The notes beneath the pieces were generated by a model, which worked only from the letters and a program-made list of their open reading frames with translations, did not search any database and was not told the origin of the DNA. A stretch of DNA of 53,537 nucleotides from a virus (taxonomy: Duplodnaviria; Caudoviricetes), in IMG/VR virus record IMGVR_UViG_3300032050_000181, positions 1-53,537 of that record; one strand, written 5' to 3'. Positions 5,636 through 41,133 of the stretch are shown here, in pieces. The position numbers and the translations under genes were made by a program. Within the stretch, counting starts at the first letter, position 1. Every line of letters begins with the position of its first letter.

Positions 5636-8600
5636 TTAATCAAAGAAGAAAAGGTGGAACAAACGCGAATCTTGCAAATTTGTTCCAAAATATTTGTTGG
5701 CAGCATGGAAACTTCTTGCGTCCCAAATCACTAAACGATTGAACACATTGCCAATGGTATCCACAAGTTCAAATTGAGTAGAATCATAAAACCCACCAGC
5801 AAAGCATTGATCTGCTCCTGGTTCATCCATGTGACGAATGCGAGTTTTCTTATGAGCAAACAATGAAGTACCTGTGTCAAATGGTGCATCTGGTGTTAAG
5901 TAAATTGCACCTGCCCAAGTTTGTGAATCGTAATGGTATACGAGCAAGTCTTCTGGCGTGCAGTATTGCAAACTTCCGTTCATACCATGATCCCATTTCT
6001 GAATCTTAATACCCATGAGTTCTTCAAATGACTTTTTCATTTCAGAAGTTAAGAATTTAGTTTTAGTTCGCTTACCCTTATACCAGTCAATATCGCCTTC
6101 GAAGTTTTGTTTCAAAGCGTAATTACGAACTGCGTACGGATCAGCATAAAAATTGTCAACAACGAAAATTCTCTTTTTCTGGGCAGATTTTGCATTCAAT
6201 TTCCAAACTGGTTTTTCTTTGTTTAAATTTTCAGTTGCAATATTATGCAGGTACTTTGGATATTCTCCCGTATCATAATACATGTTTGTATTGATCAAGA
6301 AATGATATGATGGAAATGGGTTTGTTCTCTCTGGTCTCATCATAAACGATGTATGTTTATGCATCTTATCCCACTCTTGCAGTTCCCAGTAAATTTCTGC
6401 GAGATGAATGTGGTGATCGTTTCGAACCTCAGCAAACTGCTCTGACTTTTCGTAGTGCCAAATTGCTTTATCATACTCTTTTAAGAAACGATAGGCATTA
6501 CCAATAGCGCAGATTGCATAGTATGCCATCTCATCAATATGTGCCGCTTTTTGTGTTTCATTAAAGTTGTGAGTATGATTCACAACACTATTGAAATAAA
6601 ATATGCAGCGGCGAGCATATTCTTCCTGATGAACTTCTTTGAGAGGGAAGAAATTTCCGCGATAACAATCTTCATAAGACTTACCGATATACCAAAAATG
6701 ATATAGGTCGGTCAGCATTGTACCTTCGCGAATTAACTTCTCTTCAAGTTTAAGTGCATCAGTCACATATTTGGTTGGAACTGAATAACTTTCGCCATGT
6801 GAAACTCCACCAATCATCCTAAAGGATTTCGGTAGACTTGTTCTTACGAAATTTTCTCCAATTCCATCCATTTCTAAGGTAATTGTTTCGTGCGCAGGAT
6901 CATGATTAAACTTCCAAGGTAATTTGGCATTCCAAATCCATGCTCTATAGTAAATCAATCCTGGTGCAATTGAAGTGACATGGAAACTTTGTGGGCGGGT
7001 ATCTTCAAAAATAGACCAATCAAAGTCGGCGCCAACTTCCAAAGTTTCATCACAATCCATCTTCATAATCCAATCACAACCGTGATCGCGCTTTAAAGCA
7101 GTTTGTAAAAGATGATCGCGATTCCAACCGAAATTTACCCAACCCTCTTCAACCTTGTAAAAATATCCTGGGATATTTGTCTCTGCTGCCCATTGCTTTA
7201 CAATATCAACTGTGCCGTCTGTTGATCCGTTATCTTGCAAGACCCAATACTTAATATATGGAGCGACAGAGTCAAGCATCTTACGAATATTATTCGCTTC
7301 ATTTTTAAACATCGAGATCATACAGATCTTTGCACCCTTTGGACTCTCTGCCTCTACAATTTCTGAGAATTTGGCAGAGATTAGTTCCAATAGTTTAGTA
7401 TTTTTAGTTGCAATGCCAAGCCCATAACCACTCTTGAGATTCAGCTTTGGCCAATTCAATTCTTTAAAGAATTTATTTACCCCAAATGTTTCCTGTACAA
7501 CTTTTGTGTTATGAAATAACACAACACCGTTCTCTGTTAAAAATTTAGACCAGTTCTCAAAGTTTTCTTTTACAGATTCATATGCATGATATCCATCAAT
7601 ATGAAGAATATCAATTGGCTTTTCCCAAATCTGGGCAACCTCAGAAAAATTACCTTCTACAATTTCAACATTTTTTAAATCTAGTTGCTTTAGTGCAGCG
7701 AACAATTTTTCTTTCTGATCAGGATGCGAACCTGTATGAGGATCAGGTTTGAAATTGTCGATGCCATAAACTGTACCAACTTCAGGTAATGCGAAAGTGA
7801 ACGTCGAATACCCATAATCGACACCCAAGTCAACAATGGTGTTTGCTTTTAGTTCATTAACTAACCAGTGAGCAATAATACTTTGTGGTTTCCAAGAACT
7901 TAAAATACCATCGATAACCTTTTCTCTATTTGCTCTGTTCATAACATTTACCTGTTTGCGTATGGGTAGGTTTTCATATTCGCTCGCCTCTACAGGCTTC
8001 AAATACTTGTTCTTACCACTGGTGTAATAATTGAAATAGTGTGGATTTCGAGTTCCAATCCAAAACTCTGGCTGGTGACGTTTCCAAGGATTGTTCTCAT
8101 ACAAGAACCCTGGATCAAGTTGCGAAATATATTCTGAATTTGCCCACCAAAAATTACCAGAATAGTGGGGAATGGTAATCGCGTGATTACCAAGATTCGC
8201 TTCTTTTTCCCATTCAGTACCTACGCAGTCATATTCGTTAAGTAAAGAAACACAATCTTTCCAACGATTAATGTTAAAGTAACCGAGATAATTTGCCCAG
8301 TGATTCACATTAACGTGTAAAATATCTTTAATTACTTCATAGTGCGTATCTTTCTTTATCTTTTCTACACTCCAACCTGCTCCTTTGGTGTGCATGTAGA
8401 GAATTTTATAGTTTGGATTTTGTAATGCAAACTTATATAAATCTAAAAGAGTGTCGGCTTCAGTATCTGTTTTGATATTCCTTTTGATCGACTTAACTTT
8501 TATGAGATCAAAAGGTAATGGTTTATCTCCATTAATGCCGAAATGAATATGATTGGCTGCATCATATAAACCAGACTGTTGTAAGGCAATAATCTGCCTT

Positions 8601-8665
8601 TCAAATAATTCAGCCCAATGATTTTCCTGATATATGTGATAGAATATTGCAATTTTATCAGCCAT
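5636..8665 (-). CDS. multidomain fusion: GT-like, SAM methyltransferase, GT2, TPR-like and 2OG-Fe(II) oxygenase-like domains
   Basis: LYMHTKG/HYSGNFWWA; VDLGVDYG and IDILHIDGYH; DNGSTDGT and MDCDE; helical repeats; C-terminal HYD...FHAA...RLF. Confidence 0.75.
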   Translation of the reverse strand: MADKIAIFYHIYQENHWAELFERQIIALQQSGLYDAANHIHFGINGDKPLPFDLIKVKSIKRNIKTDTEADTLLDLYKFALQNPNYKILYMHTKGAGWSVEKIKKDTHYEVIKDILHVNVNHWANYLGYFNINRWKDCVSLLNEYDCVGTEWEKEANLGNHAITIPHYSGNFWWANSEYISQLDPGFLYENNPWKRHQPEFWIGTRNPHYFNYYTSGKNKYLKPVEASEYENLPIRKQVNVMNRANREKVIDGILSSWKPQSIIAHWLVNELKANTIVDLGVDYGYSTFTFALPEVGTVYGIDNFKPDPHTGSHPDQKEKLFAALKQLDLKNVEIVEGNFSEVAQIWEKPIDILHIDGYHAYESVKENFENWSKFLTENGVVLFHNTKVVQETFGVNKFFKELNWPKLNLKSGYGLGIATKNTKLLELISAKFSEIVEAESPKGAKICMISMFKNEANNIRKMLDSVAPYIKYWVLQDNGSTDGTVDIVKQWAAETNIPGYFYKVEEGWVNFGWNRDHLLQTALKRDHGCDWIMKMDCDETLEVGADFDWSIFEDTRPQSFHVTSIAPGLIYYRAWIWNAKLPWKFNHDPAHETITLEMDGIGENFVRTSLPKSFRMIGGVSHGESYSVPTKYVTDALKLEEKLIREGTMLTDLYHFWYIGKSYEDCYRGNFFPLKEVHQEEYARRCIFYFNSVVNHTHNFNETQKAAHIDEMAYYAICAIGNAYRFLKEYDKAIWHYEKSEQFAEVRNDHHIHLAEIYWELQEWDKMHKHTSFMMRPERTNPFPSYHFLINTNMYYDTGEYPKYLHNIATENLNKEKPVWKLNAKSAQKKRIFVVDNFYADPYAVRNYALKQNFEGDIDWYKGKRTKTKFLTSEMKKSFEELMGIKIQKWDHGMNGSLQYCTPEDLLVYHYDSQTWAGAIYLTPDAPFDTGTSLFAHKKTRIRHMDEPGADQCFAGGFYDSTQFELVDTIGNVFNRLVIWDARSFHAANKYFGTNLQDSRLFHLFFFD

Positions 8666-8680
8666 GATATATTAACTCTA

Positions 8681-9916
8681 TTAGATCTTTACAGGATGCG
8701 GTCTTCTCTTATTTTCTTTTACGGCAACAAGCCAAGCATTCGTAACTGCAATCTTATCTTCCCACCAAATTGTATCTAGGCGGAAATCTTGGAATCTAAT
8801 TGTGTCGTTGCGAATGAAGCGCGCTTTATCTTTTCTTGTGTAATACCAGAAAGAGTTTTCATTCCAGTAACTAACGTGAGTTGGATCTTGGAAAGCGCCA
8901 CGTCCATCTGTACTTGGTACTTCAATGAATGCCCAACCACCGTCAGCAAGCACACGATAAATTTCAGACATAATCTTATGTTTATCGTTCAAATGTTCAA
9001 CTAGATGCGATGCATTCAACACACCAACGCTATTGTCTGGAAGCGGAATGCCTTCGTTTAGATCACAGATAATGTCGCCGCCTTCAAGGTCAAGCGTTGT
9101 GCAGCCTGGCTTTGGATTGATACCGCCACCAAGATCAACAACCATCAGATTACGATCTCTCGCATCTTTAACAGCAAGATCCCAGGCATGCTTATGGAAC
9201 AATTCAACAGTGCGCTCTTGAATGGCTTTATTGCGTTCAAGCCATGTATTGTTACCAGTGATACGATAAACATAAAGAGGTTTGCTAATATGATGCATCT
9301 TGGTTGCAAGATATGTGCGGATCATCAATTCGTGATCGTCGCAGATATCAAGTTTAGGATCATGCCCACCAATCTTACGATAAAGGTCTGTGCGCCATGC
9401 ACGAACATGGTCTGGTGCGTACCAAATAAATGCAACGCTGTGACTTGATGGTGCGAAAGAAATCATTGAGTAATATTCTTTTTCGCGCCATTTAAATGTT
9501 TCGTGTTCCCATCCGTAATATGGATTGTATGGGGTGAACTCATCTTTCATATGCCAGTTAATATCGTTACTGTAAACGAAACCGACATCTGAATTATTTT
9601 CAAAGGCTTGTTTGAGTTCTTCTAAGCAATTTGGAAGGAGAAGGTCGTCGTGATCGACTTCAACAAGAATGTCCCCTTCGCCTTTCATAAATGCATTATG
9701 TTTATTGAATCCAACGCAGGTATTATTTTCGTTGCATTCATAAATTTTAACACGTGGATCATTTACGATCGCTGAATCAACGAGGGTGCGAGATGCACCC
9801 CCGTTGAGCCATAATACCCATTCCCAATCTGTATAGGTTTGTTCTGTTAAACTCTGATACAGTTCATATAAAAACGCATTTTTTAAATGTGTCGCGGTGA
9901 TAATACTAAATTTCAC
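8681..9916 (-). CDS. GT2 glycosyltransferase fused to a C-terminal SAM methyltransferase
   Basis: MKFSIITAT, VDHDD, CDDHEL; then VVDLGGG, SHLVEH, EIYRVL, DPTH. Confidence 0.85.
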   Translation of the reverse strand: MKFSIITATHLKNAFLYELYQSLTEQTYTDWEWVLWLNGGASRTLVDSAIVNDPRVKIYECNENNTCVGFNKHNAFMKGEGDILVEVDHDDLLLPNCLEELKQAFENNSDVGFVYSNDINWHMKDEFTPYNPYYGWEHETFKWREKEYYSMISFAPSSHSVAFIWYAPDHVRAWRTDLYRKIGGHDPKLDICDDHELMIRTYLATKMHHISKPLYVYRITGNNTWLERNKAIQERTVELFHKHAWDLAVKDARDRNLMVVDLGGGINPKPGCTTLDLEGGDIICDLNEGIPLPDNSVGVLNASHLVEHLNDKHKIMSEIYRVLADGGWAFIEVPSTDGRGAFQDPTHVSYWNENSFWYYTRKDKARFIRNDTIRFQDFRLDTIWWEDKIAVTNAWLVAVKENKRRPHPVKI

Positions 9917-14470: not shown

Positions 14471-14499
14471 AGTATATATCACTTAATGTCAAAAGGCAA
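14471..14499 (-). promoter_or_regulatory. sigma70-type promoter for primase-thyX-nrdJ
   Basis: TTGCCT-17 nt-TATACT. Confidence 0.6.
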
Positions 14500-14823
14500 A
14501 CCTAATTTCGAAATGAGCCAACCAACAACAACGGCGCCACCCATCACAAGCCAGCGCCATTTATTTAAATCTTCTATTTTTTGTTTTTCTATTGCGTGTT
14601 GCGCAGCCATTTCTTCGCGCAATGACTTCATCTCTTGTACTAGATCTACTCTTAACTCATCCATCATTTGCTGGAGTTCTTTTCGATCTTCGATTTGACG
14701 TTCGTCTAGTTTGTCTAGTGTTCTATCAAACTTCTCGTAGATGACTGAGAAGAAGGAGACCTTCTCTCGTATTGCAGCGACCTCAGTCTCTATTTTACTT
14801 AATCTGCTTTCGAAGTCAATCAT
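14479..14823 (-). CDS. coiled-coil protein with C-terminal transmembrane anchor
   Basis: Heptad-rich body ending KWRWLVMGGAVVVGWLI. Confidence 0.8.
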   Translation of the reverse strand: MIDFESRLSKIETEVAAIREKVSFFSVIYEKFDRTLDKLDERQIEDRKELQQMMDELRVDLVQEMKSLREEMAAQHAIEKQKIEDLNKWRWLVMGGAVVVGWLISKLGLPFDIK

Positions 14824-14824
14824 T

Positions 14825-14983
14825 CTACTTTACTGCCTTGCTAGTTGTTTTTATACCTGCTTGACGCAATTTTCTTGCACGGCAGTGGGCTTTTTGTGAA
14901 AATCCTTTAGGGCTGGAACAATCAATACTTTTCTTGTATTTGCTGCTCCATCCTTCAGAGATGAATTGTTTAAATGCAAGCAT
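14825..14983 (-). CDS. 52-aa basic protein with capsid-targeting-like N-terminus (not in ORF track)
   Basis: MLAFKQFISEGWSSKYKKSIDCSSPKGFSQKAHCRARKLRQAGIKTTSKAVK; ATG overlaps the upstream TAA and the ORF fills the gap exactly. Confidence 0.8.
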   Translation of the reverse strand: MLAFKQFISEGWSSKYKKSIDCSSPKGFSQKAHCRARKLRQAGIKTTSKAVK

Positions 14984-15276
14984 TATTTATTTTTATTCTT
15001 TTCCTGTAAGATCGCTAACTCGCGATCTGACATTCTATCCCAAATGCTTGGCGTTTCTTGATGTTTCTTTTCAACAATACCGTACATATGTTTTAACATA
15101 TGTGCACGAGTTGCATCGTCTTCTAATCTTTCTTTACAGAGTTCATCACTTGCTTTAGTTTTCCAAATTTCTGGAAACACACCATGTACTAATAAAATGA
15201 ATGCGATTTTCCATGCGCGAAACAAATGTTGAAAGTAACCATAACCGACTTCATTTAGGTGGGACATTTTTAACAC
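14983..15276 (-). CDS. hypothetical protein (DUF6356-like by motif)
   Basis: HLNEVGYGYFQHL...LVHGVFP...AS motif. Confidence 0.6.
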   Translation of the reverse strand: MLKMSHLNEVGYGYFQHLFRAWKIAFILLVHGVFPEIWKTKASDELCKERLEDDATRAHMLKHMYGIVEKKHQETPSIWDRMSDRELAILQEKNKNK

Positions 15277-15427
15277 TTTCCGCTTGAGGTGTAATTGTTT
15301 TTAATTGTTTTGGTGGAGCCATCAATTCTTTTGGTGGTTCAGGCATTTCAATCTTCGGCACCAAACGAGTTAATGGATTTGCGCAACCAGCAAGAACCAA
15401 AAAAGAAAGAGCGATTATGTATCTCAT
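15251..15427 (-). CDS. outer-membrane spanin (Rz1-like lipoprotein)
   Basis: MRYIIALSFLVLAGC lipobox, Pro-rich, overlaps the i-spanin stop codon. Confidence 0.75.
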   Translation of the reverse strand: MRYIIALSFLVLAGCANPLTRLVPKIEMPEPPKELMAPPKQLKTITPQAESVKNVPPK

Positions 15428-15975
15428 TTCGCTTCTCCTTTCTTCCAAGGCATTTCAGGAAGTTTAATGTCTAAACCACGATCAGCGTTTTGTTTATCAA
15501 CAGATGCTTTAGTCTCAAGAATCCATGATTGCAAACTAACTAGTTGCTGCGCATTTTGCAAACAAATAGAATAATTAGCAAGAACAGTTCCGAGAGCCTG
15601 ATTGTCTTTTACAACTGAATCAGTATCATCTGAAGCCATCTCAGGATTTAGTTCTTCACCTTTTACACTAGTATCGTGCAAGTAAACCCAACCATTTGTA
15701 AGATTAAACTTACCAGGAACTTGTTGTTCAGCAGCGTCGCGATAAATTGTTTCCTTTTGAGTCACAACTTTAATCTTATCAACATACTCAGTAACAACTC
15801 GTTCTTTGATGTTGGCTTGTTCTTTCTCAAGTTCAATTTTTAACTGCTCTGCTTCGTTCGCAGCTTTTTGAACCATAACTTCGCCAGCGTCAGATCCTTT
15901 TTTATAGCCTGCAGCAAATGCGCCGCCAACTAAAAGAACCACTGCAAGGATCTTATATGGTAATGGTATAAGCAT
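15424..15975 (-). CDS. inner-membrane spanin (Rz-like)
   Basis: N-terminal TM helix, coiled coil, NYSIC...LQSWI C-terminus, adjacent to a lipoprotein. Confidence 0.75.
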   Translation of the reverse strand: MLIPLPYKILAVVLLVGGAFAAGYKKGSDAGEVMVQKAANEAEQLKIELEKEQANIKERVVTEYVDKIKVVTQKETIYRDAAEQQVPGKFNLTNGWVYLHDTSVKGEELNPEMASDDTDSVVKDNQALGTVLANYSICLQNAQQLVSLQSWILETKASVDKQNADRGLDIKLPEMPWKKGEAK

Positions 15976-15978: not shown

Positions 15979-16146
15979 TTAATCTCTTGGCCAAATGTTA
16001 CTTTCAACTGCATCATTCAACCACATGCTTGCTCCCAATAATTTTGAGTAAAGCCAATATGTGCCATTTGATAAAAACAAAAATAGAGAAGCAAGCCATT
16101 TAAACAAATAAATGAATGGTATAGCGAATGGTTCTAAAATAAACAT
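15979..16146 (-). CDS. 55-aa hydrophobic membrane protein (not in ORF track)
   Basis: MFILEPFAIPFIYLFKWLASLFLFLSNG...IWPRD; TGATG overlap with the nuclease gene. Confidence 0.65.
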   Translation of the reverse strand: MFILEPFAIPFIYLFKWLASLFLFLSNGTYWLYSKLLGASMWLNDAVESNIWPRD

Positions 16147-16568
16147 CAGTTACACCAACTTGCTTTCTTTTCACCAAAGTATTGGCGAGCGTGACCGTTT
16201 TGAATTAATAGTGCAGAGAGTCTCTGCCCATCAACAATTAGATCACCAAGGACGCGACCACCAAACTTATCGTGCTCTTTTAATTCAACTTTGATTGACT
16301 TTGCATTTGCGACAAGATTTTTGGTAAACGCACTGGCTGCTTCAGCGGCTTTTGCTTCCTCTGGACAACCAGCACGCGCACCCTTTTCTGGAGTGTCAAC
16401 ACCAAGAACGCGCAAACTTAATTGCGGTTTCAAAGGTGCTGGCATAAATGGTGCTTCGAACACCACTGTATCTCCATCACTAACTTTCAATACTTTGAAG
16501 TCGTAAGGATTTGCAAGAGCAGCAGATGAGAAACTTAATGCGATAAGTGCAATAAACTTCTTCATCAT
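16146..16568 (-). CDS. secreted thermonuclease (SNase family)
   Basis: Sec signal ending in ALA; DGDT, LRVLGVDTPE, DKFGGRVL. Confidence 0.88.
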   Translation of the reverse strand: MMKKFIALIALSFSSAALANPYDFKVLKVSDGDTVVFEAPFMPAPLKPQLSLRVLGVDTPEKGARAGCPEEAKAAEAASAFTKNLVANAKSIKVELKEHDKFGGRVLGDLIVDGQRLSALLIQNGHARQYFGEKKASWCN

Positions 16569-16822
16569 ACTGCCTTCTTCTTGCGACCTTTCTTAACTTT
16601 CGCAGCCACTTCTTTTACGTCTGCAAGATCAACTTTTCCGTCTTTGTTGACGTCAAGAGCATTTGCAGCATGAGCCTTAGCATCAGCAGCAACTTCTTTA
16701 GCGGCAACAAGAACATCTTTGTGATCTACAGCACCGTCATTGTTAGCGTCTGGCTTTTTCCATAATTTCCAAACAATCCAACCCGCAACAACAACTAATA
16801 GTAACACAACTAATGTACTCAT
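16565..16822 (-). CDS. membrane-anchored protein with two EF-hand/dockerin-like Ca-binding loops
   Basis: N-terminal TM; DANNDGAVDHKD and DVNKDGKVDLAD. Confidence 0.75.
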   Translation of the reverse strand: MSTLVVLLLVVVAGWIVWKLWKKPDANNDGAVDHKDVLVAAKEVAADAKAHAANALDVNKDGKVDLADVKEVAAKVKKGRKKKAV

Positions 16823-16839: not shown

Positions 16840-17079
16840 TTAGGCAACAGGTGGTTTTTTTGGTGCAAACTTTTCTGCAACCGTTGTACCAAGACCACCC
16901 AACACGATCATCATCATTGAGTCGTACATAAACTTCTCAACAACGAATCCCCAAAACAAATTCAATACGAATGCAAGTGACACCAAGAATGCCGCTAAAA
17001 ACGTAATGACTCGCTTTGATGAAACCGAACCGTTTTCACCGTCCGATAGCATTGATTTTAAATTTGCTAATAGATTCAT
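16840..17079 (-). CDS. two-TM membrane protein, holin candidate
   Basis: SSKR followed by two hydrophobic segments and a basic C-terminus. Confidence 0.6.
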   Translation of the reverse strand: MNLLANLKSMLSDGENGSVSSKRVITFLAAFLVSLAFVLNLFWGFVVEKFMYDSMMMIVLGGLGTTVAEKFAPKKPPVA

Positions 17080-17233: not shown

Positions 17234-17773
17234 TTATTTAGCCAAAGGATTTTCCCAAGCCTTTTGAATCTTTTCATCAACTTTCTTCTCTAGTTCTTTC
17301 AATTTAGCGTCTGTTTCGCGTTCGATCGCTCTCAATCGGGCTGACATTTCGCGGTCTGTGACGCCGACAAATCCGCGGACTTCCTTATCGAGTTCGCGAT
17401 TACGTCTTTCGGCTGCATCTACATCGGCTTGAAGGCTATCAATATCGCCTTTTAGATCTGAACGAACGTCGCGGAGAATATCGCCGCTTTCGTCGACCAT
17501 GACGACTGCATTATCGACGCGCTCTTCCATCTTGGTGATGCGTTCGTTGATGGCTGATAAATCTGGAGCAACGTACTCTTGAATCTGTTGCTTCATATCC
17601 ATATAATCTTTATAGAACTCGAAGGCTCCATAAAGACCACCAAGAACCGTGGACACAATACCGCCAGCGATCATAAGTTTTGCTGGTGTGAAACTGTAAC
17701 CGCCAATGCTGATTACTGTATTTGGGTCAACCGCTGCTTCTAACTTGTCGACCTTCTCGTCTAAATCGCTCAT
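17234..17773 (-). CDS. single-TM protein with long coiled coil
   Basis: LMIAGGIVSTVLGGLYGAF then a heptad-rich region; AGGAG SD. Confidence 0.8.
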   Translation of the reverse strand: MSDLDEKVDKLEAAVDPNTVISIGGYSFTPAKLMIAGGIVSTVLGGLYGAFEFYKDYMDMKQQIQEYVAPDLSAINERITKMEERVDNAVVMVDESGDILRDVRSDLKGDIDSLQADVDAAERRNRELDKEVRGFVGVTDREMSARLRAIERETDAKLKELEKKVDEKIQKAWENPLAK

Positions 17774-17797
17774 CTATTTGCTCCTTGTTTTTATACT

Positions 17798-18241
17798 TTA
17801 TCTCGTTATAATATAAACAAATCCAAATATTCCAATTGCAAACATAACAAATAAAATCCCGATGCAGATCATCAGTGTAATTTCTTCTTGCCTTTGCGCG
17901 GCTTCAATTTCAGCGCGTCGTCTTGCTTGCGCTGCTGCTAATTCCATCTGCGCATGCATTTTCTGAAACTTCACCCAATCATCCCATAATCCAGGGCGCC
18001 CAGCAATCAGCATATAGTCTTTGAGTTCTCTTTCCTTTCTTCGTACTTCTTCTAATGCGAAAAATTCTTCTAGTCGGCTACGCTCATTTGCAGGTGTTTC
18101 AATAACTTTCTTTTCTAACTTTCGTTTACCTTCAAAGAAACTTCCTAATTGACCTGCACACTCACCTAATTCTCTGCCGTTAGAGACAACCTCCTTGATA
18201 ACAGCATATGCAGCATTGATTGCTGCGAGTTCTGCTAACAT
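17798..18241 (-). CDS. helical protein with C-terminal TM anchor
   Basis: Coupled to the upstream gene by TAATG overlap; hydrophobic C-terminus. Confidence 0.8.
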   Translation of the reverse strand: MLAELAAINAAYAVIKEVVSNGRELGECAGQLGSFFEGKRKLEKKVIETPANERSRLEEFFALEEVRRKERELKDYMLIAGRPGLWDDWVKFQKMHAQMELAAAQARRRAEIEAAQRQEEITLMICIGILFVMFAIGIFGFVYIITR

Positions 18242-20814
18242 TACTTATACTGTTCTTCGATCATTTTTTTATAAGTGTCTGTGTTTCCTTTTTCAAGGAA
18301 GTAAGAGCCACGAACATTGTCCTTAATAATAACACCTTTGTAAATATCTTCTGGTTTATACCATACATTATTATCACGAATCATTGCAGTTCTGTAGGCG
18401 CTCACATCAGTATCTGCGCCCATAGCAGCAACAATACCAGATTGATCTGCGTCCATGTAGTTTTTATTAATTTCTTCCTGCTCTTTTGCATTTGCAGCAA
18501 CGACTTCATCTGCTCGCTTCTCGGCGTCAGACTTTTCTTCTTGCTTGTTATTTAATACACCAGCAACTTCAAGGTTTGTGACATTAGGTGCTAGATTAAA
18601 TGCATTTGCAAGAGCAGGGTCATTGGCAATCGTAATCTTTTCTTCTTCAGAGAAACCAGAGTTATTAATTTCTTCTTGTTTCTGATCGTTTGATGCGGCA
18701 ACGACTTGCTGGACAAACTCAAAGTCACCATCAGCTTTTTCTTCAATCACAGGCTTGATATCCATTTGCATAAGTTCAGCAAAGGTATCTGTTTGCTCGT
18801 TTGTTTGAGTTTCAGTAGCAGCAACCATTTCAATCTTCTCTTCCTGTGCTTGCTCAACTCCAGTATCAATGATTGTTGTTCCGCTTTCTATCTCATTTGC
18901 TGTTTCTGTTTGTGCAACAACCTGTTGCTCAGTTTCTGTTGTCATAGATCCAGTAGAAGAATCTTCAAATACAACCTGTTGAACTTCTCTTCTGCTGCCA
19001 TCATCAACTTCTTCTGTTTTATTGGCTGCAGCCATAGCAACATCTTCAACCATGGTTGTTTGACTACTATCTGCAGAAGCAACAACTGTTGTTTGTGTTT
19101 CACTAAAACTCATAGCAATTGATTCTGCTTGACTGACAGACTCAGCGGCTGACTGCTCTGTCTGACTCATTGTTGACGCAAGGGCTTCTCTACCCATCTG
19201 TCGTCCTGTTTCTAAAGTCTCAGAGGCAGAATCAGATGATTCCATCATTTCAGTTTTTTGTTCTTCTTCTTTGGATTCAATGCTTGTTGTTTCTTGGACA
19301 ACAAAAGATGAGGAAGATGATTGAGTTGTTGAAGTTCTTGTCGAACTTTCTGTTTGTGTTGTAGTTGCAGCAGAAGCGGATGCAGAAGAACCAGAGGCTG
19401 CAGCAGTTGCATCTGATGCAATGGCGAGAGCACCTTCTAGTGTATTCTTAGAGATTGCATCAGCAAGGATTGCTGCCTTTTCGTCATCTGACAATTCACG
19501 ATATGCCGCTACAACTGCAGGAAGGGATGGTTCAGAAGGATCTTCGGCAGTTTCTTCAGCAACTAACACTTCTTCCTCTTCTGATGCTTCTTCTTCAGAA
19601 CTATCAGCAAGCATTTCTTCTAAATTCTCATCAGCAGCATCGCCTGATTCTTCATCAGCAACTAATACTTCTTCCTCATCTTCAATCACTTCAGTACCAT
19701 CAGATGAGCCATCGTCTGAACCATCGTCAGAACCTGTCTCTTCAGATATGCCAGGGTCTGTTTCTTCAATAGATGCTAACACTTGCTCTGGATCAGAATA
19801 GTCAATAGTGCCATCATCAATACCAAGTGTGTCAATAATGCAACTTGGATCAAATGGATCTAATACACAATCCACAGTTGGTGGTTGTTCTTGAAAACTG
19901 TAATATGTTCCAGAGGTTGGAGTGCCTTCTGTATAAAGGAATAGATAATCTGAATCTGGTCTTTGTATAGAGGTAATCTTTAATGCTTCACCACCAGAAC
20001 TAACTGCAGTCCAACCAACTAGATCTTCACCCTTTGTGGCAAGCTGGCTAAACAATATAGGGTCGTTACCCTTAAAAATAAAAATGTAATCACTGCCAGG
20101 AGCACTGACATTCATACCAGCAAGACCGCCAGAAGTTGGCAATGGAGGTGGCATGTAATTAATCTGAAGCATTGCATTGTCAACGCTAGGACCGTATAAT
20201 CCACCCCAGAAGCCAGCATCGTTACCAGTAAATTCTAATCTTGCGCTCGTAAATAAAAAATCAGATTGCACATGGCTATACCAACCAAAATTTTGCCAAG
20301 CACTTTGCGCTTCTTGTCCAAGTAGACATAAACCAAGGATTTCAATACCACCGATGCAACCAATATTTGCTGTAGATGGTGTACCGCTTAATAATGTAAA
20401 AGAATTGTTTAATCCATTTGTATCATAGAACTTTAAAGTGACAGAAAATGGATCAATAGGACCATCAATGCTAGAGCAGGATCCACCAATAAAATTACGA
20501 CAAGAATTATTCAAATCAAATGAAAATATAAAATTAAATAGGTTTGTTTCGTATTGAGAAAGATCAATATCTTGATACAATGTCCCTTGAACATAACTAA
20601 ATGTGTATAGTTTTCCATCACCTGCTGGGACCCAATCACCAAGAGGAAACCCTGCTTCCTTCCATGCACCGCATGTTGGTGCACCAGACACACAGTTGTC
20701 CATTGTTGGATTTACAACAATATTTGGAACATTGACTGCATTGGTCCAATCTAGCTGCTGCGCATTAAGCGCAGCACTAGAGAGTAGCAATAATAGAGCG
20801 AGTAATCGCTTCAT
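18241..20814 (-). CDS. large secreted protein: Cys-containing lectin-like N-domain plus long acidic/Ser/Thr stalk
   Basis: Sec signal MKRLLALLLLLSSAALNA; FSY...YQDIDL...GNDAGFWGGLYGP resembles the FBA sugar-binding fold; very D/E-rich remainder. Confidence 0.75.
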   Translation of the reverse strand: MKRLLALLLLLSSAALNAQQLDWTNAVNVPNIVVNPTMDNCVSGAPTCGAWKEAGFPLGDWVPAGDGKLYTFSYVQGTLYQDIDLSQYETNLFNFIFSFDLNNSCRNFIGGSCSSIDGPIDPFSVTLKFYDTNGLNNSFTLLSGTPSTANIGCIGGIEILGLCLLGQEAQSAWQNFGWYSHVQSDFLFTSARLEFTGNDAGFWGGLYGPSVDNAMLQINYMPPPLPTSGGLAGMNVSAPGSDYIFIFKGNDPILFSQLATKGEDLVGWTAVSSGGEALKITSIQRPDSDYLFLYTEGTPTSGTYYSFQEQPPTVDCVLDPFDPSCIIDTLGIDDGTIDYSDPEQVLASIEETDPGISEETGSDDGSDDGSSDGTEVIEDEEEVLVADEESGDAADENLEEMLADSSEEEASEEEEVLVAEETAEDPSEPSLPAVVAAYRELSDDEKAAILADAISKNTLEGALAIASDATAAASGSSASASAATTTQTESSTRTSTTQSSSSSFVVQETTSIESKEEEQKTEMMESSDSASETLETGRQMGREALASTMSQTEQSAAESVSQAESIAMSFSETQTTVVASADSSQTTMVEDVAMAAANKTEEVDDGSRREVQQVVFEDSSTGSMTTETEQQVVAQTETANEIESGTTIIDTGVEQAQEEKIEMVAATETQTNEQTDTFAELMQMDIKPVIEEKADGDFEFVQQVVAASNDQKQEEINNSGFSEEEKITIANDPALANAFNLAPNVTNLEVAGVLNNKQEEKSDAEKRADEVVAANAKEQEEINKNYMDADQSGIVAAMGADTDVSAYRTAMIRDNNVWYKPEDIYKGVIIKDNVRGSYFLEKGNTDTYKKMIEEQYK

Positions 20815-22382
20815 TATTCACCAGCTGGTTTTGCTACTGGAAGATCTTCAGTTGTATCTTTTTTCCAAACTTCCCACCATCTCTTACGGAAGTCTGGTCT
20901 TTCTTCTTTGTTAGCAGCCCACTGTTCGTTGGCTTCTTTACCAATCTTACCCATATACGGGCAAGGTGTGCCAGCCATTTCCATAGCCTTAAACACGCGC
21001 TCGTCTTGGCACATCATTGATACAGCAGCAACTTTCATACCCATGTCATATAGAGTCTTGGAAAGTTTTAATCTTTCGCAATTCATATCGCGAACTGCCT
21101 TACCAGCAGATAGACCAATGACCTGTGTTTGAACGGCACCTGAGACGCCACTGACGCAGACATCCTGGCTATATGTTGAGATCATAGGCGCGATAGCACT
21201 AGCAGGTGGTGCCTTAATCTCTTGTTCTACCTTTGTAATGTTTTCGTTACGATTGATGTTCGTATTTGTATTCTCAGTCTTTACATTGCTTTGGCTTGTG
21301 CTTTCAGACTTATTGACATTTTCGTTCTTATTTACAGCCGTTGAAGTGCTTACATTGACATTGTTATTATTGTTTGTATTTACGCTAGTGCTATCGTTTT
21401 TATTAACATTAGTATTTGTGGAAACACTGTTGTTATTGTTATTATTTGTGTTTACACTTGTTGAGTTATTGTTGTTTGTGTTAACATTGTTTGAGTTAAT
21501 CGTTGTATCGTTCTTATTGTTATTATTATAAGTGACTTCACCAGACATGTTGTTATTATTGTTATTCGTGTTGGTAGAAGTGCTCACATTATTATTAAAG
21601 TTTGTGTTTGTAGACACAGAGTTATTGTTATTATTATTCGTGTTCACGCTCGTAGATGTGTTCACATTGTTATTATTATTCGTGTTCACGCTGGTTGAAG
21701 TATTCACATTGTTGTTGTTATTTGTGTTTACGCTCGTTGTCGTATTCACATTATTATTGTTATTCGTCGAAGTCGTATTATTCGTATTCTGATTGATATT
21801 TGTCAAAGTACCAGACTGAATGTTGTTATTTGTATTCACATTCGTATTGGTATTTGTATTCGTAGAGGTGCTGGTGCTAACATTATTGTTGTTGTTATTA
21901 TTCGTTAAAGTACCAGACTGAATGTTGTTATTTGTATTCACATTCGTATTGGTATTTGTACTATTAACGGTAGAGGTGTTAATGTTAGTGTTGGTATTAT
22001 CACTAGTTGTAGTGTTATTGTTATTATAGTTTACCGTACCACTGTTAATATTATTATTCGTATTTACATTGGTATTGGTATTTGTAGAGGTCGAAGTCGA
22101 AGTGTTTGTGTTCACATTCGTATTCGTATTATCAGAAGTCGAAGTAGAGGTCGAAGTGTTCGTATTCTGATTAATATTCGTTGCAGTACCAGATTGAATG
22201 TTATTATTCGTATTTACATTCGTGTTGGTATTGTCCGAAGTCGATGTGGAGGTCGAAGTCGAAGTTGAAGTAGATGTTGTATTAACATCTGAGGTCGTAT
22301 TGACCGTAGAAACTGTAGTTGTCTGGGCGAATGCCTGTGCTGCGCCGACTGCGAATAGTAGCGCAAAAAGTAACTTTCTCAT
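20814..22382 (-). CDS. secreted Asn/Thr-rich repeat protein with 4-Cys C-terminal domain
   Basis: Sec signal ending AQAFA; about 370 aa dominated by N/T/S/V; C-terminal SAIAP...C...CERLK...CQD...TPCP. Confidence 0.85.
   Translation of the reverse strand: MRKLLFALLFAVGAAQAFAQTTTVSTVNTTSDVNTTSTSTSTSTSTSTSDNTNTNVNTNNNIQSGTATNINQNTNTSTSTSTSDNTNTNVNTNTSTSTSTNTNTNVNTNNNINSGTVNYNNNNTTTSDNTNTNINTSTVNSTNTNTNVNTNNNIQSGTLTNNNNNNNVSTSTSTNTNTNTNVNTNNNIQSGTLTNINQNTNNTTSTNNNNNVNTTTSVNTNNNNNVNTSTSVNTNNNNNVNTSTSVNTNNNNNNSVSTNTNFNNNVSTSTNTNNNNNNMSGEVTYNNNNKNDTTINSNNVNTNNNNSTSVNTNNNNNNSVSTNTNVNKNDSTSVNTNNNNNVNVSTSTAVNKNENVNKSESTSQSNVKTENTNTNINRNENITKVEQEIKAPPASAIAPMISTYSQDVCVSGVSGAVQTQVIGLSAGKAVRDMNCERLKLSKTLYDMGMKVAAVSMMCQDERVFKAMEMAGTPCPYMGKIGKEANEQWAANKEERPDFRKRWWEVWKKDTTEDLPVAKPAGE
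21250..22320 (-). repeat. low-complexity coding repeats (NTNTNVNTNNNI[Q/N]SG x4; TSVNTNNNNN units)
   Basis: Includes an exact 54-bp direct repeat at 21805-21858 and 21907-21960. Confidence 0.9.
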
Positions 22383-22390
22383 TTTCTCTC

Positions 22391-22462
22391 CTGACTTTTA
22401 TGTCTTTTAGTATAACAAAAACATAAATTATAGTTTCTGCACTCGGAAACTATGTAAATCAG
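22391..22462 (-). promoter_or_regulatory. candidate structured 5' leader (three-way junction) abutting the SD
   Basis: CUGAUUU/AAGUCAG closing stem enclosing AUAGUUUC/GAAACUAU and UUUAUGUUUUU/AAAGACAUAAA hairpins. Confidence 0.45.
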
Positions 22463-22497
22463 CAGTTAAATGACAAACGTCAATTCTTTAGTAATTA

Positions 22498-22564
22498 TAC
22501 CTATTTATAATGCCAACGGTTTTCCGTCGCTTTATTTTAAGATGCAAAAAACGTACCTATTTAT
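22498..22564 (-). promoter_or_regulatory. tandem T4-type late promoters
   Basis: TATAAATA at 22502-22509 and GATAAATA near 22558-22565; ATAAATAGGTA repeated exactly at 22498-22508 and 22554-22564. Confidence 0.7.
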
Positions 22565-30332: not shown

Positions 30333-31505
30333 TTATGATATGAAACCTGGTTTATACACAGTTTTACCTTTTTCTGTTAACGCAGTAAGTTTTTGTTTTC
30401 TGTTTTGATTTTTTGATGAAACAGATGCGTGAACCCAACCAGAGTTTGGTCCTTCTTTCGGATCATAGAACTCAAGAATGATCTGATCGAATTCACAATT
30501 TTCAGCAACCCATTTCGCTAGGTCTGGGTTTGGGAGTCCGTCGATTTCGAAGTCGACCGCTTCTCCATTGCAATGCTGACTTTTGCTGCTACCACCAACA
30601 GCGGCATTAAGAGCAGCGCCCCGATACCCGCTATTAATACGAACAGGTTTACCGAAATGTTTACGAACTGGTTCAAGAATCTTTTCGCATACCATTTTAA
30701 GGTTGTTAGCGTGTTCTGCATTTGGTGTGTTATCAATCCTTTTTCGAATTGCAGTTTCACTTTTAGTAAACTCTTTCAAATTAAAATGTTCAGATAATTG
30801 CATTTCAGGATTTACTTTACCTGAGGATGCTACTGCAGATTTTGCAGCCGCTGGTGCTGCGGCAACTTTAGGTGCAGCAATTGCACCAGGTGCGCTCAAT
30901 TGCGCGAAGTACGTTTTCGTCTTATTCTTGCGATCTTCCAAGCCGTGTGTACCACCATTAACTTTCTTACTAATGGATAAAATCGTAGCATCAGTCACTC
31001 CTTGATCGCAAATTGTCCAAAGTTTATTTCTTTCAAAAAAGAACATCGCAGATTCAAATGCCAATTCCGTGGCAACGAGATCTGGATTTGTCATTACGTC
31101 TGGACGATTACAATACTTTGAGAAAGCCAGATAATTATCTTTACCTGTCAATTGTAATGCACCACGTCCACGATATTTCCAACCGTCACCTGACGCTTCT
31201 GGACCATTGCCCATACGACTCGCATAAACACGATTTGCAATTCTTTCTGGTTTGCGTTCGTATTGTAATGCAAGAGCATCGGTTGGGAAATATTTACCAA
31301 AAATCCCACGGAGACCTTTTGCTCCATAGTTTAAGTTTTCAGAGAATGCTTTGAATCCGCCAGTCTCATGAGCAGTTTGCCCAAAGAAGTGCGCTGCTCT
31401 TGCTGGAGATAATTTATAATAGGCAGCAGCAGCACGTAGAGTACCAGGACCCCACGCACCGTCTGCTGTTACGCCTATTTTTTGTTGAAGTGCTTTTAAA
31501 CTCAT
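30333..31505 (-). CDS. endolysin: PG-binding segment, GH19 glycosidase and M15A peptidase
   Basis: ADGAWGPGT; HETGGF, YRGRGALQLTGKDNY, VNGG; then SGYR, SQH..GEAVD, WVH. Confidence 0.9.
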   Translation of the reverse strand: MSLKALQQKIGVTADGAWGPGTLRAAAAYYKLSPARAAHFFGQTAHETGGFKAFSENLNYGAKGLRGIFGKYFPTDALALQYERKPERIANRVYASRMGNGPEASGDGWKYRGRGALQLTGKDNYLAFSKYCNRPDVMTNPDLVATELAFESAMFFFERNKLWTICDQGVTDATILSISKKVNGGTHGLEDRKNKTKTYFAQLSAPGAIAAPKVAAAPAAAKSAVASSGKVNPEMQLSEHFNLKEFTKSETAIRKRIDNTPNAEHANNLKMVCEKILEPVRKHFGKPVRINSGYRGAALNAAVGGSSKSQHCNGEAVDFEIDGLPNPDLAKWVAENCEFDQIILEFYDPKEGPNSGWVHASVSSKNQNRKQKLTALTEKGKTVYKPGFIS

Positions 31506-35990: not shown

Positions 35991-38449
35991 TTGTCGCCAA
36001 ATTCACGCTCAAATGCCTCGTTGACATCTACTGACTCACGACGCAAATCCTTATCGGCTGTGTGGTAGGTTTTGCCCTTTGTAATATAGGAATTTACACG
36101 AGCATGACCCCACTGCTGTGGCGTGGTTCCTGGACGATGTCCAGAATTCCAAGCCGCAACGCCACGATTATAAACCTTTCTTAAAGTGCCAAGCGAAATG
36201 CCCGACTTTCTCGCTTTATCGGCAAGTGACTTACCTGCTGATTCTTCCATCGTGCCCATTGCGGCTTGATGAATATGGCGATTTTGATGATGAATTACAC
36301 GAGTATCGCGAATGCGCCGCTCACGTTCTGTCTTTTTAGTAATTGCAGCATTATCAGTCATTTGCTCAGCAACGCGTGGCAATTCACGATAGGCTTTTGC
36401 TAATCCCTTTGAAGGAAGTTTCTTTGCAGCCTCACGACCCATTTGTAGTGCAGATCCACCAAATCGAACTTTACCGCTGATTGCTGCATTCACGCCAGCC
36501 TGACGCAATACCTTTTTCTTGGCTTCTGCGTTTGCTTTATTGCGTTCATCAATTTGTTCTACGCTTTCATATGCAGCAACTGTATGACGGTGAATGACTG
36601 GTCCTGTTTGTTGAGGTTTCGCGACTCGCGTTTGTCTTTCAATAGTTGAGAATACAGCGCGCATATGTTTGTGGCTAACTGCTGGTTTCTTTTTTGCAAC
36701 AGGTTTCTTTCGTAGAAAGGATAAGAAACCTTCAAATTGTTCGACTTCTTCGTTTGTCTTAGCGACTTGTTTTTTATCATATTCTTTGCGAGCCTGAGTC
36801 AGCATTTCCTCGCCACGCTTACGGCTGGCATCGCTTGCAGTTTTTTCTCTGTCAAATGCGCGTTGTAATTTGACGGCTGCACTCATGCGCTTTGAGCCTT
36901 CATCCACTTGCTCGGCTTCTTCTTTCATTTGATTAATGTATGATTTGAATTTGTCAGCAACAGTATCCCCTTTATGTCTGCTTATGTTGACAGACTTACC
37001 ATGCAAACTACCACGGACTGTGTCATCGTCCTTGTCATGTTCTAGCCAGCCAACTTCTTTATTTCCAACAGAGACACTAAAGTGCCGCATCATTGGGTTT
37101 GCTCTTGAGCCTTTGAATACAGGAGACTCTTTAGGCTCAATTTTATATCCACGAGCCTCATCCACTTGCTCGACTTCTTCAAAATGAGCCTTCATGTGTG
37201 CTTCGGTGTCTTTCTTGGTTTGATTTGGACCAAGACCACCAAGTTTTGTCATGCGGCGAATATATTTTTTAGAAGCGGCAGCTGCACGAGCATTCTTATC
37301 TCGATTCAAGAAGTTCTTGACATCAGATGATTTTGGGCGAGCGGCTGCTTCATAATCGAAGCGCATGTTGGCTTCATCAACCTGCTCGACTTCTTCTTTT
37401 ACTTTTTTATATTGTTTTTGCAATATTTTCAATGCACCTGATTTAACTTCATCGCGTTTAACTGGATTCGCTTTTTTTCCTAATGCTAATCCTTCAGCAC
37501 CACGACTTGAAGATGGTTGAGATTTATCCATTTCATCGAGTGCAACTTCATGTAAGCGAACGTTGCTTACATGTGTTTTAAATATTGGGTAATAGTCATC
37601 ACCACGACCTAGTGTACTGCGCTTATAATCGCTGCGGAAATAAACATGACCACCTTCAACCTTTTCAACTTTACCAGTATTTTGACCACCTTTAATAGTT
37701 GAAATGTGATCGCCGACCTTTGGTTTATAATCTGCCATCTTTTCTTCACCCATATGTTTGAAGTATTGAACTTGTCTTTCGCGCTTCATTGCGCCAGCCT
37801 TTGTGTCATAAGTTCCAAGATTGCGTCCAGTCTTTTTAGAAACAAGACGAAACTTACCATCAACCTTTACGATTGTTTCATCTAACTCTACGGACTCGTC
37901 CATTTTTGGACTGATTCCTTTATATTCTCTTTTAACACCTTCGCCGTCCCAATAAGCGCAGCACATTCTTTCTGTCACAAAGTCATGAATGTCCTCGTGA
38001 TTGCAATATGCTTTTATCTTAACAACTGCCTTTCCTGGCAATGTAACAAGATCAGCATGTTTAGACATTTCAACGTATGCTTCGTTTGGCGCTTTCAATC
38101 CACCATATTCGTTCAATTCGCTCTTGTCGACTGGCTTCTCTGATTCCTTTACCCAGTGAATACAGTTAGCGCAATTTGTTCCTTCAATCTTTTCTGGTGC
38201 ACCTTCAACAACAATACCAATTTGTTCACCGAACATTTTATGAAAACGTTTTGTGTATTTGCTTGGTTTTGTTTTTGCTGTTGCATCACCAGGTGCAGGT
38301 TTGTATGCGCGTGGATCGCTGTCGGAAAGTTTTGCTGCCTTTTTCCAATGCGCAGCACGAGCCTTTGCAGTAGATTTACTTAAACCTGCCACATACTTCT
38401 TTGGCAATCCTGATTCTTTATCTTTTGCAACAGGAGGAAACTTTTTCAT
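35987..38449 (-). CDS. modular putative capsid-internal polyprotein (DUF5824-like C-terminal module)
   Basis: About 10 basic modules separated by E-[E/S]-V-E-Q-[V/I]-D-E-like linkers; C-terminal VYNRGVAAW...QQWGHARVNS. Confidence 0.7.
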   Translation of the reverse strand: MKKFPPVAKDKESGLPKKYVAGLSKSTAKARAAHWKKAAKLSDSDPRAYKPAPGDATAKTKPSKYTKRFHKMFGEQIGIVVEGAPEKIEGTNCANCIHWVKESEKPVDKSELNEYGGLKAPNEAYVEMSKHADLVTLPGKAVVKIKAYCNHEDIHDFVTERMCCAYWDGEGVKREYKGISPKMDESVELDETIVKVDGKFRLVSKKTGRNLGTYDTKAGAMKRERQVQYFKHMGEEKMADYKPKVGDHISTIKGGQNTGKVEKVEGGHVYFRSDYKRSTLGRGDDYYPIFKTHVSNVRLHEVALDEMDKSQPSSSRGAEGLALGKKANPVKRDEVKSGALKILQKQYKKVKEEVEQVDEANMRFDYEAAARPKSSDVKNFLNRDKNARAAAASKKYIRRMTKLGGLGPNQTKKDTEAHMKAHFEEVEQVDEARGYKIEPKESPVFKGSRANPMMRHFSVSVGNKEVGWLEHDKDDDTVRGSLHGKSVNISRHKGDTVADKFKSYINQMKEEAEQVDEGSKRMSAAVKLQRAFDREKTASDASRKRGEEMLTQARKEYDKKQVAKTNEEVEQFEGFLSFLRKKPVAKKKPAVSHKHMRAVFSTIERQTRVAKPQQTGPVIHRHTVAAYESVEQIDERNKANAEAKKKVLRQAGVNAAISGKVRFGGSALQMGREAAKKLPSKGLAKAYRELPRVAEQMTDNAAITKKTERERRIRDTRVIHHQNRHIHQAAMGTMEESAGKSLADKARKSGISLGTLRKVYNRGVAAWNSGHRPGTTPQQWGHARVNSYITKGKTYHTADKDLRRESVDVNEAFEREFGDK

Positions 38450-39921: not shown

Positions 39922-39927
39922 TAAGAT

Positions 39928-39934
39928 TATTTAT
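39928..39934 (-). promoter_or_regulatory. T4-type late promoter (ATAAATA)
   Basis: Overlaps the upstream stop codon. Confidence 0.4.
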
Positions 39935-41097: not shown

Positions 41098-41133
41098 TTA
41101 AAAACATACTCTCCGCTCTGTGGGATATGAGTA

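Follow-up and report, generated by a model that had tools for sequence, protein, structure and literature searches.

A co-inherited trio of exported and membrane proteins, often beside lysis genes, in aquatic phages

Four co-oriented genes behind a structured leader

The window, by which we mean the whole stretch of DNA analyzed (IMG/VR virus record IMGVR_UViG_3300032050_000181; 53,537 nucleotides), is a 53.5-kb fragment in which every long open reading frame (ORF) lies on the minus strand. Our subject is a set of four genes in it, g1 to g4. Three of these, g1, g2, and g4 (hereafter the trio), are co-inherited in a great many aquatic phages, whether podoviruses or myoviruses, and their products are predicted to be exported or membrane proteins and are not recognizable virion parts. 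We tentatively favor the view that the trio makes up a periplasmic assembly, tethered to the inner membrane, whose action on the envelope comes at or around lysis and is that of an accessory, not a replacement. The genes and their leader, with gene boundaries from the ORF list, are as follows.

22383..22560, minus strand: leader between the LamG tail-fiber-like gene and g1, with one exact TATAAATA, two hairpins, and a GGAG ribosome site
20814..22382, minus strand: g1, 522 aa
18241..20814, minus strand: g2, 857 aa
17798..18241, minus strand: g3, 147 aa
17234..17773, minus strand: g4, 179 aa

A first-pass annotation, made from the sequence alone, had described a set of four genes, the first three coupled by TAATG overlaps. 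This description holds: the four co-oriented minus-strand ORFs encode 522, 857, 147, and 179 residues, and the g1/g2 and g2/g3 junctions both read TAATG. The annotation also placed tandem late promoters and a structured leader ahead of g1. The next gene 5' of g1 encodes a 1071-aa LamG-repeat tail-fiber-like protein. A single exact copy of the T4-type late-promoter motif, TATAAATA, lies 5' of g1 (22502-22509, minus strand); because the window contains three copies where 2.7 are expected by chance, tandem late promoters are not shown in it. Among relatives, the motif falls within -250 to +90 of the called g1 start in 10 of 71, where its density in these loci would predict about 1.7, and in five of those 10 it sits 40 to 56 nt 5' of the start. 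The leader does fold better than shuffled sequence (1 of 200 shuffles as good; z, -2.9). Neither of the two nearest relatives, L005 and L091, conserves its sequence.

Architecture of the encoded proteins

The g1 protein comprises a signal peptide-like segment (aa 1-21; nt 22320-22382), a stalk (aa 22-399) encoded by diverged 42-nt and 102-nt repeats, and a C-terminal domain, or C-domain (aa 400-522; nt 20817-21185). It is an Asn/Thr repeat protein with an export signal, as had been claimed: residues 22 to 400 are 38% Asn, 24% Thr, and 13% Ser. Judged by composition, the N termini of g1 and g2 both resemble Sec signals, with a basic residue pair followed by a hydrophobic core and an Ala-rich end, and hydrophobic N-terminal segments recur throughout the g1 relatives. 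The relatives that we compared occupy 80 IMG/VR loci, the best-scoring of about 600 matched stretches. They share one plan: a signal peptide, often the motif QTGxCTAGxQYCE, a stalk of 26 to 44% Asn and 16 to 34% Thr, and the C-domain. Locus L073 encodes a short, Ser-rich outlier (Ser, 27%; Thr, 16%; Asn, 14%).

Across 76 sequences, the g1 C-domain has 37 invariant columns. Four of these are Cys, which would be compatible with an oxidizing compartment. The domain matches PHROG 20531 (E, 2.1e-15; 58 bits; profile positions 203-286 of 314) and occurs in an estimated 3000 IMG/VR stretches; the family comprises at least 1420 protein clusters at 90% identity, none with a name or a Pfam domain. Among cultured phages, it is carried by the Pelagibacter podoviruses HTVC033P, 202P, 023P, 115P, and Baldr, by the Pelagibacter myovirus Mosig, and by Roseobacter phages; a match in Ralstonia phage RSP15 is weak. 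The g1 stalk of the window is about 380 aa long, whereas the cultured relatives have roughly 55 to 85 aa before the C-domain. The AlphaFold2 model of the domain is a small helical unit with a pLDDT of 73 to 86 at fragment residues 41-110; the strongly conserved Gly-rich segment ahead of this helical core was modeled poorly. The model (mean pLDDT, 66) had no Foldseek match at E <= 0.001, and its best VIA Z was 3.4, which does not amount to evidence for a new fold; an ESM Atlas search with the domain returned unnamed viral clusters only. Might g1 be an N-glycosylation substrate? It contains 25 NxS/T sequons, but its composition predicts that number, and we rejected this idea.

The g2 protein has a signal peptide-like N terminus, a Cys-containing head made up of subdomains A (aa 21-227) and B (aa 231-315; nt 19870-20124), an acidic and Ser/Thr-rich stalk (aa 321-760), and a conserved C-domain (aa 761-857; nt 18244-18534). 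It had been called a lectin-like protein with an acidic stalk. The stalk is indeed acidic, with net charges of -48, -18, and -24 over three successive segments of the middle of the protein. The lectin-like label is less secure, its sole basis being language-model matches of the head in the ESM Atlas (DUF642, CBM, and galactose-binding-like), all scoring <0.9. At least two head types, unrelated to each other, are mounted on the conserved C-terminal anchor: a major type in 47 of 49 loci and a second found only in the window and L005. The window type is rare (36 relatives at E <= 0.001 among 1.84 billion cluster representatives), and tblastn of g2 against cultured phages gave no match. Two other ideas were rejected: a trimeric autotransporter, since no anchor family was found and the C terminus lacks a terminal aromatic residue, and sequestration of calcium or magnesium by the acidic stalk, which is implausible in natural waters.

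The two remaining proteins are membrane anchored, as first described. In g3, a helical N-terminal part is followed by a C-terminal membrane helix (aa 123-142). In g4, a short, predicted cytoplasmic N terminus precedes a membrane helix (aa 33-52; nt 17618-17677) and a predicted periplasmic coiled coil. Relatives of g4 span 98 to 194 aa and have a single membrane helix near the N terminus, followed by a coiled coil that varies in length; all 46 carry Asn-Pro-Leu (NPL) within the last ten residues (nt 17243-17251 in the window). The Gly/Ala/Ser/Thr fraction of the helix has a median of 0.5 in these 46 (range, 0.3 to 0.6), against 0.20 to 0.25 in five other membrane helices of the window, and the helix is only weakly hydrophobic (mean Kyte-Doolittle value, about 1.56). 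Weak hydrophobicity and an abundance of Gly, Ala, Ser, and Thr characterize the helices of signal-arrest-release (SAR) anchors. In these two properties, the g4 helix resembles the SAR anchors of P1 Lyz and phage 21 S21; the passenger differs, being a coiled coil with an NPL tail and not the enzyme of a SAR endolysin or the holin of a pinholin. The arrangement of an N-terminal membrane helix and a periplasmic coiled coil is also that of the inner-membrane (i-) component of two-component spanins (lambda Rz/Rz1; T4 PseT.3/PseT.2), and the C terminus of g4 may likewise bind a partner. Pfam and PHROG scans place g4 outside the Rz/Rz1-type families; its matches are of the generic coiled-coil kind (phrog_34433, E 5e-4; DUF7310, below cutoff).

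No characterized equivalent of these proteins had been known to the annotation, and our family scans and literature search found none. Pfam gave zero families for g1 and g2 at E <= 0.01, and Pfam, PHROG, NCBIfam, and PADLOC together gave nothing for them besides PHROG 20531. The g3 protein matches PHROG 32327 (E, 5.6e-10), with no fitting Pfam, NCBIfam, PADLOC, or PDB family. PDB profile searches with the C-domains of g1 and g2 and with g4 yielded nothing or generic coiled coils. A search of the literature, supplementary files aside, found no description of the trio genes; the excerpts seen of two papers (PMC9038755, PMC6811365) mention only lysis genes in general.

Could these instead be ordinary virion or assembly proteins, such as a tail fiber, a fiber chaperone, or an internal protein, whose hydrophobic N termini are never used as signals? 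The trio does come directly after the 1071-aa LamG-repeat gene, behind a late-promoter motif, and its architecture is long, repetitive, and fiber-like. However, the signal-peptide-like N termini are conserved among g1 relatives, the invariant Cys pairs fit an oxidizing compartment, no structural PHROG is matched, and in podoviruses the trio stands in the lysis block and not in the structural block. We therefore regard a virion role as highly improbable.

The unit of inheritance is a trio

The first-pass annotation treated all four genes as one module. For g1, g2, and g4 this is borne out; all four together recur only rarely. Every IMG/VR locus with at least 2.5 kb of downstream sequence has g2 after g1 (55 of 55). 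A profile search gave 51 of these, the other four being missed solely through ORF-start offsets, and in the 55 loci the large ORF that encodes the g2 C-domain begins where g1 ends or slightly ahead of that point. A g4 relative follows g2 in 47 of 47 loci with enough sequence, and the gene after g2 falls into one BLAST cluster with g4 in 45 of 46. Direct homologues in the same order are found among "hypothetical proteins" of cultured phages: HTVC033P gp46-gp44; Mosig_00202-00200; HTVC115P gp54, gp53, and gp49; and CRP-207 gp75.

The lengths of the components are also related. The g1 stalk and g2 correlate strongly in length (Spearman 0.81), g1 stalk and g4 less so (rho, 0.53), as do g2 and g4 (0.45; n = 41 throughout); these values are uncorrected for relatedness, and because related loci share lengths the points are not independent.

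A further 38 loci came from genome collections, all of them metagenome-assembled genomes (MAGs) or single-cell assemblies and mostly short contigs. Enough downstream sequence is available in 23; a g4 relative is present in 16 of these, and 5 are alphaproteobacterial g1-like genes that stand alone. Such stand-alone cellular homologues occur in high-GC alphaproteobacterial MAGs (loci L122-L127); they combine a signal peptide with a low-complexity region rich in Gly/Asn or Asn/Lys and with a Cys-containing C-domain 33 to 49% identical to that of g1. In both of the loci inspected (L123, 5410-6375; L125, 5398-6378), thiC adjoins the g1-like gene, with neither g2 nor g4.

By contrast with the trio, g3 is rarely present. 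BLAST finds no relative of it in the 80 best IMG/VR loci, and in the nearest relative of the window, L005, an unrelated 64-aa ORF occupies its position. A g3-family profile matches in 3 of 118 loci (L102, L103, and L107), in two of them between g2 and g4. We conclude that the evolutionary unit is g1, g2, and g4 and that g3 is an occasional extra. Elsewhere, a g3 relative in the T7-like Roseobacter phage CRP-361 (gp43) adjoins a GTA_holin_3TM gene; the context of those in Mosig and CRP-212 is uninformative. The g3 profile also matches ORFs less than 10 kb from a viral CsgG gene in 7 of 80 CsgG loci that lack g1 (L163, L165, L171, L172, L173, L186, and L209). Tail-anchored proteins of the g3 kind may be a general companion of late envelope modules.

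The trio often lies among lysis genes

Downstream of g4 in the window lie further genes for envelope and lysis proteins.

16840..17079, minus strand: 79-aa protein with a clear helix at aa 24-43 and a second, by eye, at about aa 56-70; no Pfam match
16565..16822, minus strand: 85-aa protein with an N-terminal membrane helix and two calcium loops (Dockerin_1, E 2.8e-7; EF-hand_7, E 4.1e-7)
16146..16568, minus strand: 140-aa staphylococcal-nuclease (SNase) homologue with an N-terminal signal peptide (SNase, E 3.1e-10)
15424..15975, minus strand: 183-aa Rz-like i-spanin (phrog_4952, E 1.7e-26; phrog_8821, "Rz-like spanin," E 1.4e-9)
15251..15427, minus strand: proline-rich small lipoprotein, candidate outer-membrane (o-) spanin (lipobox LVLAGC; LysC/Rz1-like, E 0.0075, below cutoff)
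14983-15276, minus strand: DUF6356 small membrane protein (Pfam)
14479-14823, minus strand: DUF7201 coiled-coil protein with a C-terminal membrane helix (Pfam)

The order 3' of g4 is the 79-aa gene, the EF-hand gene, the nuclease gene, a gene for a 55-aa membrane protein, and then i-spanin, lipoprotein, and DUF6356. Size, topology, and position make the 79-aa protein a holin candidate. The i-spanin has an N-terminal membrane helix and a predicted periplasmic coiled coil, and the start of the o-spanin candidate overlaps the end of its gene, giving a canonical two-component pair at 15251-15975. The DUF6356 and DUF7201 families flank the trio in L019 and in phage Mosig (Mosig_00199) as well. The trio is accordingly the upstream part of an envelope and lysis gene cluster of about 8 kb. 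We also noted that the SNase homologue weakly resembles calcium-activated nucleases and that the 85-aa EF-hand gene lies directly upstream of it; the two products may form a calcium-linked pair.

Other loci resemble the window in this respect. Of 79 loci, 44 have a gene for a lysis protein (endolysin, Rz-like i-spanin, or holin-like) no more than 3 kb from g1-g2; where at least 3 kb is available on both sides, 15 of 27 do. In 28 of 79, a secreted SNase homologue is encoded no more than 2 kb away. Neighbors were scored from Pfam-confirmed seeds, and because these are few, both the lysis and the nuclease counts are lower bounds. In L039 the order is trio, Rz-like gene, lipoprotein, lysozyme; in L020, trio, small lipoprotein, Rz-like gene, lipoprotein, lysozyme, terminase; in L047, trio, two-helix protein, M15 peptidase. 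Cultured phages fit the same picture: Mosig has a GTA_holin_3TM gene directly 5' of g1 and, as in the window, a DUF7201 protein and primase after g4; HTVC033P has an Amidase_2 endolysin gene three genes 5' of the trio; and CRP-207 has a lysozyme gene two genes 3' of it.

Is the trio, then, a form of spanin? The two are alike in that they occupy lysis blocks and in that their component lengths covary, as expected of a matched-length assembly. Unlike spanins, g1 and g2 are large, Sec-exported (by prediction), and devoid of a lipobox; the components number three and not two; and there is no sequence relation. The signals of g1 and g2 are type-I-like, with no Cys near the cleavage site, so neither qualifies as an o-spanin. 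A small lipoprotein gene follows the g4 relative in 8 loci; in the two of them inspected, L020 and L040, a distinct Rz-like gene and another lipoprotein gene come next. Canonical spanin pairs co-occur with the trio in the window, L039, and L020. We rejected replacement of spanins by the trio, given the canonical pair already present in the window.

We also asked whether the neighborhood might point to superinfection exclusion or sensing, with the trio serving as a periplasmic barrier or sensor against the DNA of a later phage in the manner of T4 Imm and Sp or of the RI antiholin, which senses superinfection. The predicted periplasmic location, the adjoining holin gene, and the pairing with a periplasmic or secreted nuclease would all suit such a role, and phages of very abundant hosts should meet superinfection often. 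There is also a T4 precedent, as described in the portions seen of two reports, for a secreted antiholin whose target is the holin's periplasmic domain (PMC8385771, PMC11413866). However, the trio products show no similarity to the Imm, Sp, RI, or T families (for the holin T and antiholin RI families, Pfam, PHROG, and NCBIfam gave no match to any of g1 to g4), and they are far larger than known exclusion proteins. Moreover, the T4 exclusion genes imm and sp are expressed early, whereas a late-promoter motif precedes g1. We consider an exclusion role unlikely.

The link to phage curli modules is not general

In pelagiphages, a viral type VIII secretion system (T8SS, or curli) module has been described that consists of CsgF, CsgG, CsgA/B, FecR, a second CsgA/B, and an adenylate cyclase, according to the parts seen of three papers (PMC9599517, PMC9004378, PMC7029224). 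Both this module and the trio are multigene, envelope-directed sets common to podoviruses and myoviruses of aquatic hosts, and the hosts themselves lack such genes. In L006 and six related loci, the two are joined, in the order CsgF, CsgG, curlin, FecR, curlin, three small genes, g1, g2, g4, and CHASE2 cyclase. The trio was seen inside a curli module at L006 (1-13249) and also at L131-L135, L140, L141, and L155; it goes unmentioned in the module descriptions, as far as the published excerpts extend.

We wondered if the Asn-rich-repeat g1 might be a curli-type cargo or accessory, threaded through a phage CsgG pore to form surface fibers. The joined loci would be explained in this way, and subdomain B of g2 is 44% identical to the N terminus of a phage curlin-repeat protein in a curli operon (E, 2e-16) and is shared with the second curlin gene of L085. 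Viral T8SS modules are, moreover, abundant in pelagiphages (PMC9599517, in the part seen). Yet the subdomain B relatives carry Curlin_rpt and the window genes do not: neither g1 nor g2 matches Curlin_rpt (PF07012). A look-up of the clusters of these relatives gave no names. CsgG lies within 7 kb of the trio in only 1 of 80 loci; conversely, 42 of 49 CsgG loci have no trio within 10 kb. Most trio genomes lack CsgG/CsgF: CsgG is absent from the complete trio-bearing genomes of HTVC033P, HTVC115P, and Mosig and from one complete IMG/VR genome (G007), and the window, a 53.5-kb fragment of its genome, has neither CsgG nor CsgF. Finally, the trio has an inner-membrane anchor, unlike the T8SS module, and a disulfide-bonded C-domain would not fit a narrow pore. 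The curli link of the trio is therefore not general, and we think a curli cargo role very unlikely.

Do the g2 heads bind cells?

The first-pass annotation had proposed a host-surface appendage. Such an appendage must get past the outer membrane, which does not sit well with a cassette that encodes no outer-membrane route (Pfam found no secretin, usher, CsgG, or barrel anchor in g1 to g4), whose neighbors are lysis genes, and which occurs in four complete genomes that lack CsgG. Because the trio sits among lysis genes, action inside the envelope around lysis is likelier than an appendage; we retain the appendage as a weak reading because one lineage has the trio inside a phage curli module.

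A related proposal is that the trio is a surface adhesin or agglutinin. It would gather in the periplasm and be freed at lysis or, in some hosts, exported, and the g2 heads would bind host glycans, so that receptors on debris are masked, neighbors are aggregated ("sibling capture"), and competing phages are hindered. The presence of at least two unrelated head types on a conserved anchor recalls binding modules. On the major-type heads, NIDO (PF06119) matched weakly in two of six tested (L019, E 1.7e-4, 22.1 bits against a cutoff of 25; L008, E 0.028), and the NIDO profile did not match the head of the window g2. Subdomain B is common to the window g2 and the N termini of phage curlin-repeat fibers, and the secreted nuclease often found alongside would fit a job in the lysate. 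For the T8SS module that contains the trio in one lineage, aggregation or superinfection defense has been proposed (PMC9599517, in the part seen).

Several points count against an adhesin. The absence of an outer-membrane export route and of CsgG in the complete genomes applies here too; the g4 inner-membrane anchor is hard to reconcile with a purely extracellular product; and the lectin-like character of g2 comes from language-model matches below 0.9. Cultures of the curli-bearing phage Melnitz showed no clumping, judging from the part of the report seen (PMC9004378), a result that bears on curli rather than on the trio. On balance, we find an adhesin possible but rather unlikely.

A periplasmic lysis accessory is tentatively favored

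Products that are exported and anchored, co-inherited, matched in length, and usually encoded with lysis genes beside canonical spanins, endolysins, and holin candidates together lead us to favor, tentatively, a periplasmic lysis accessory. How might it work? In the assembly that we propose, which would be made late, the C-terminal domains of g1 and g2 would dock on the g4 tail, giving a long structure anchored in the inner membrane. Farthest from the anchor, the Asn/Thr stalk of g1 and the g2 head on its acidic stalk would extend to the cell wall or the outer membrane. There the structure would assist the holin, endolysin, and spanin steps, for instance by loosening outer layers or through an effect on timing. 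The likeness of the g4 helix to a SAR anchor suggests that the assembly may be set free once the holin collapses the membrane potential.

A bolder version seems to us possible, though doubtful: that the trio represents a further functional class of Gram-negative lysis proteins, a three-protein periplasmic machine with an inner-membrane anchor releasable by depolarization. Such a machine would be triggered by the holin and would act on the wall or outer layers by a route not used by spanins. Many of the most abundant aquatic phages, among them cultured phages of SAR11 and Roseobacter, would carry it.

Against the lysis accessory, a number of observations must be set. Spanins, endolysin, and holin candidates are already present in the window and in many loci, which makes the trio superfluous to the textbook model. 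No recognized lysis gene lies within 3 kb in 12 of the 27 full-flank loci, and the T4-like L008, L012, and L033 have the trio among RegA, UvsX/gp32, or baseplate genes. The trio-in-curli loci amount to about three lineages by CsgG identity, or 7 of 49 CsgG loci with 9 kb downstream. The stand-alone cellular homologues imply that the g1 C-domain can work without g2 and g4. The 80 loci being the best-scoring ones, the counts describe nearer relatives and not a random sample. Hints of expression, by contrast, count for the lysis accessory: besides the enrichment of TATAAATA 5' of g1, exact pieces of g1, g2, or g4, and of neighboring genes too, occur in RNA-library contigs from the freshwater metatranscriptome runs X15, X16, and X18, each from its own study. 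These contigs may have some DNA content and carry no information on strand, ends, or timing. Pieces from the region in a fourth RNA library, X17, carry a few mismatches, and stretches without RNA-contig cover carry no information. Very deep contig pieces of 31 to 32 nt at about 19629-19662 have 3 mismatches, and we treated them as low-complexity noise.

Envelope opening by phages of the most abundant aquatic bacteria, namely SAR11, Roseobacter, and their freshwater counterparts, is largely unstudied. The gene set described here is common and crosses unrelated phage morphotypes; its place is in the lysis block, and no described family matches it. Should the trio act in lysis, the three-step holin-endolysin-spanin model would lack something for these hosts. 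Should it be released and bind cells or debris instead, phages would be supplying plankton with an extracellular factor that influences adsorption and aggregation. Both possibilities are testable in the cultured carriers HTVC033P, Mosig, and CRP-207.

Source and habitat of the window

The window is apparently a piece of an uncultured T4-like phage from fresh water. Its DNA polymerase is 51% identical to those of cyanomyoviruses, and it holds a T4-type replication set (UvsX, DnaB-like helicase, primase, ribonucleotide reductase, and ThyX) together with tail-fiber-like genes. Megablast of 11 kb against cultured phages gave no match, and Rfam found no family anywhere in the window. Near-identical DNA (at least half of sampled words) occurs in 14 metagenome runs labeled freshwater, lake water, or, oddly, "fungus." The freshwater and lake runs come from many studies and years. 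Since the cultured phages with a related cassette are mostly marine, the cassette occurs in both habitats.

Other genes of the window also bear on envelopes and surfaces. Among the tail genes, a 390-aa GH19 chitinase/lysozyme-like and M15 peptidase protein (30333-31505, minus strand) is either the endolysin or an enzyme of the tail that degrades the wall. At 5636-9916 and 38446-43763 (minus strand) lie large sets of sugar-nucleotide and modification genes. They include a 1009-aa methyltransferase/glycosyltransferase/DUF6445 fusion, a glycosyltransferase-methyltransferase, an NTP transferase, dehydratase/epimerases, and a cytidylyltransferase-like kinase fusion, and their target could be DNA, the virion, or the host surface.

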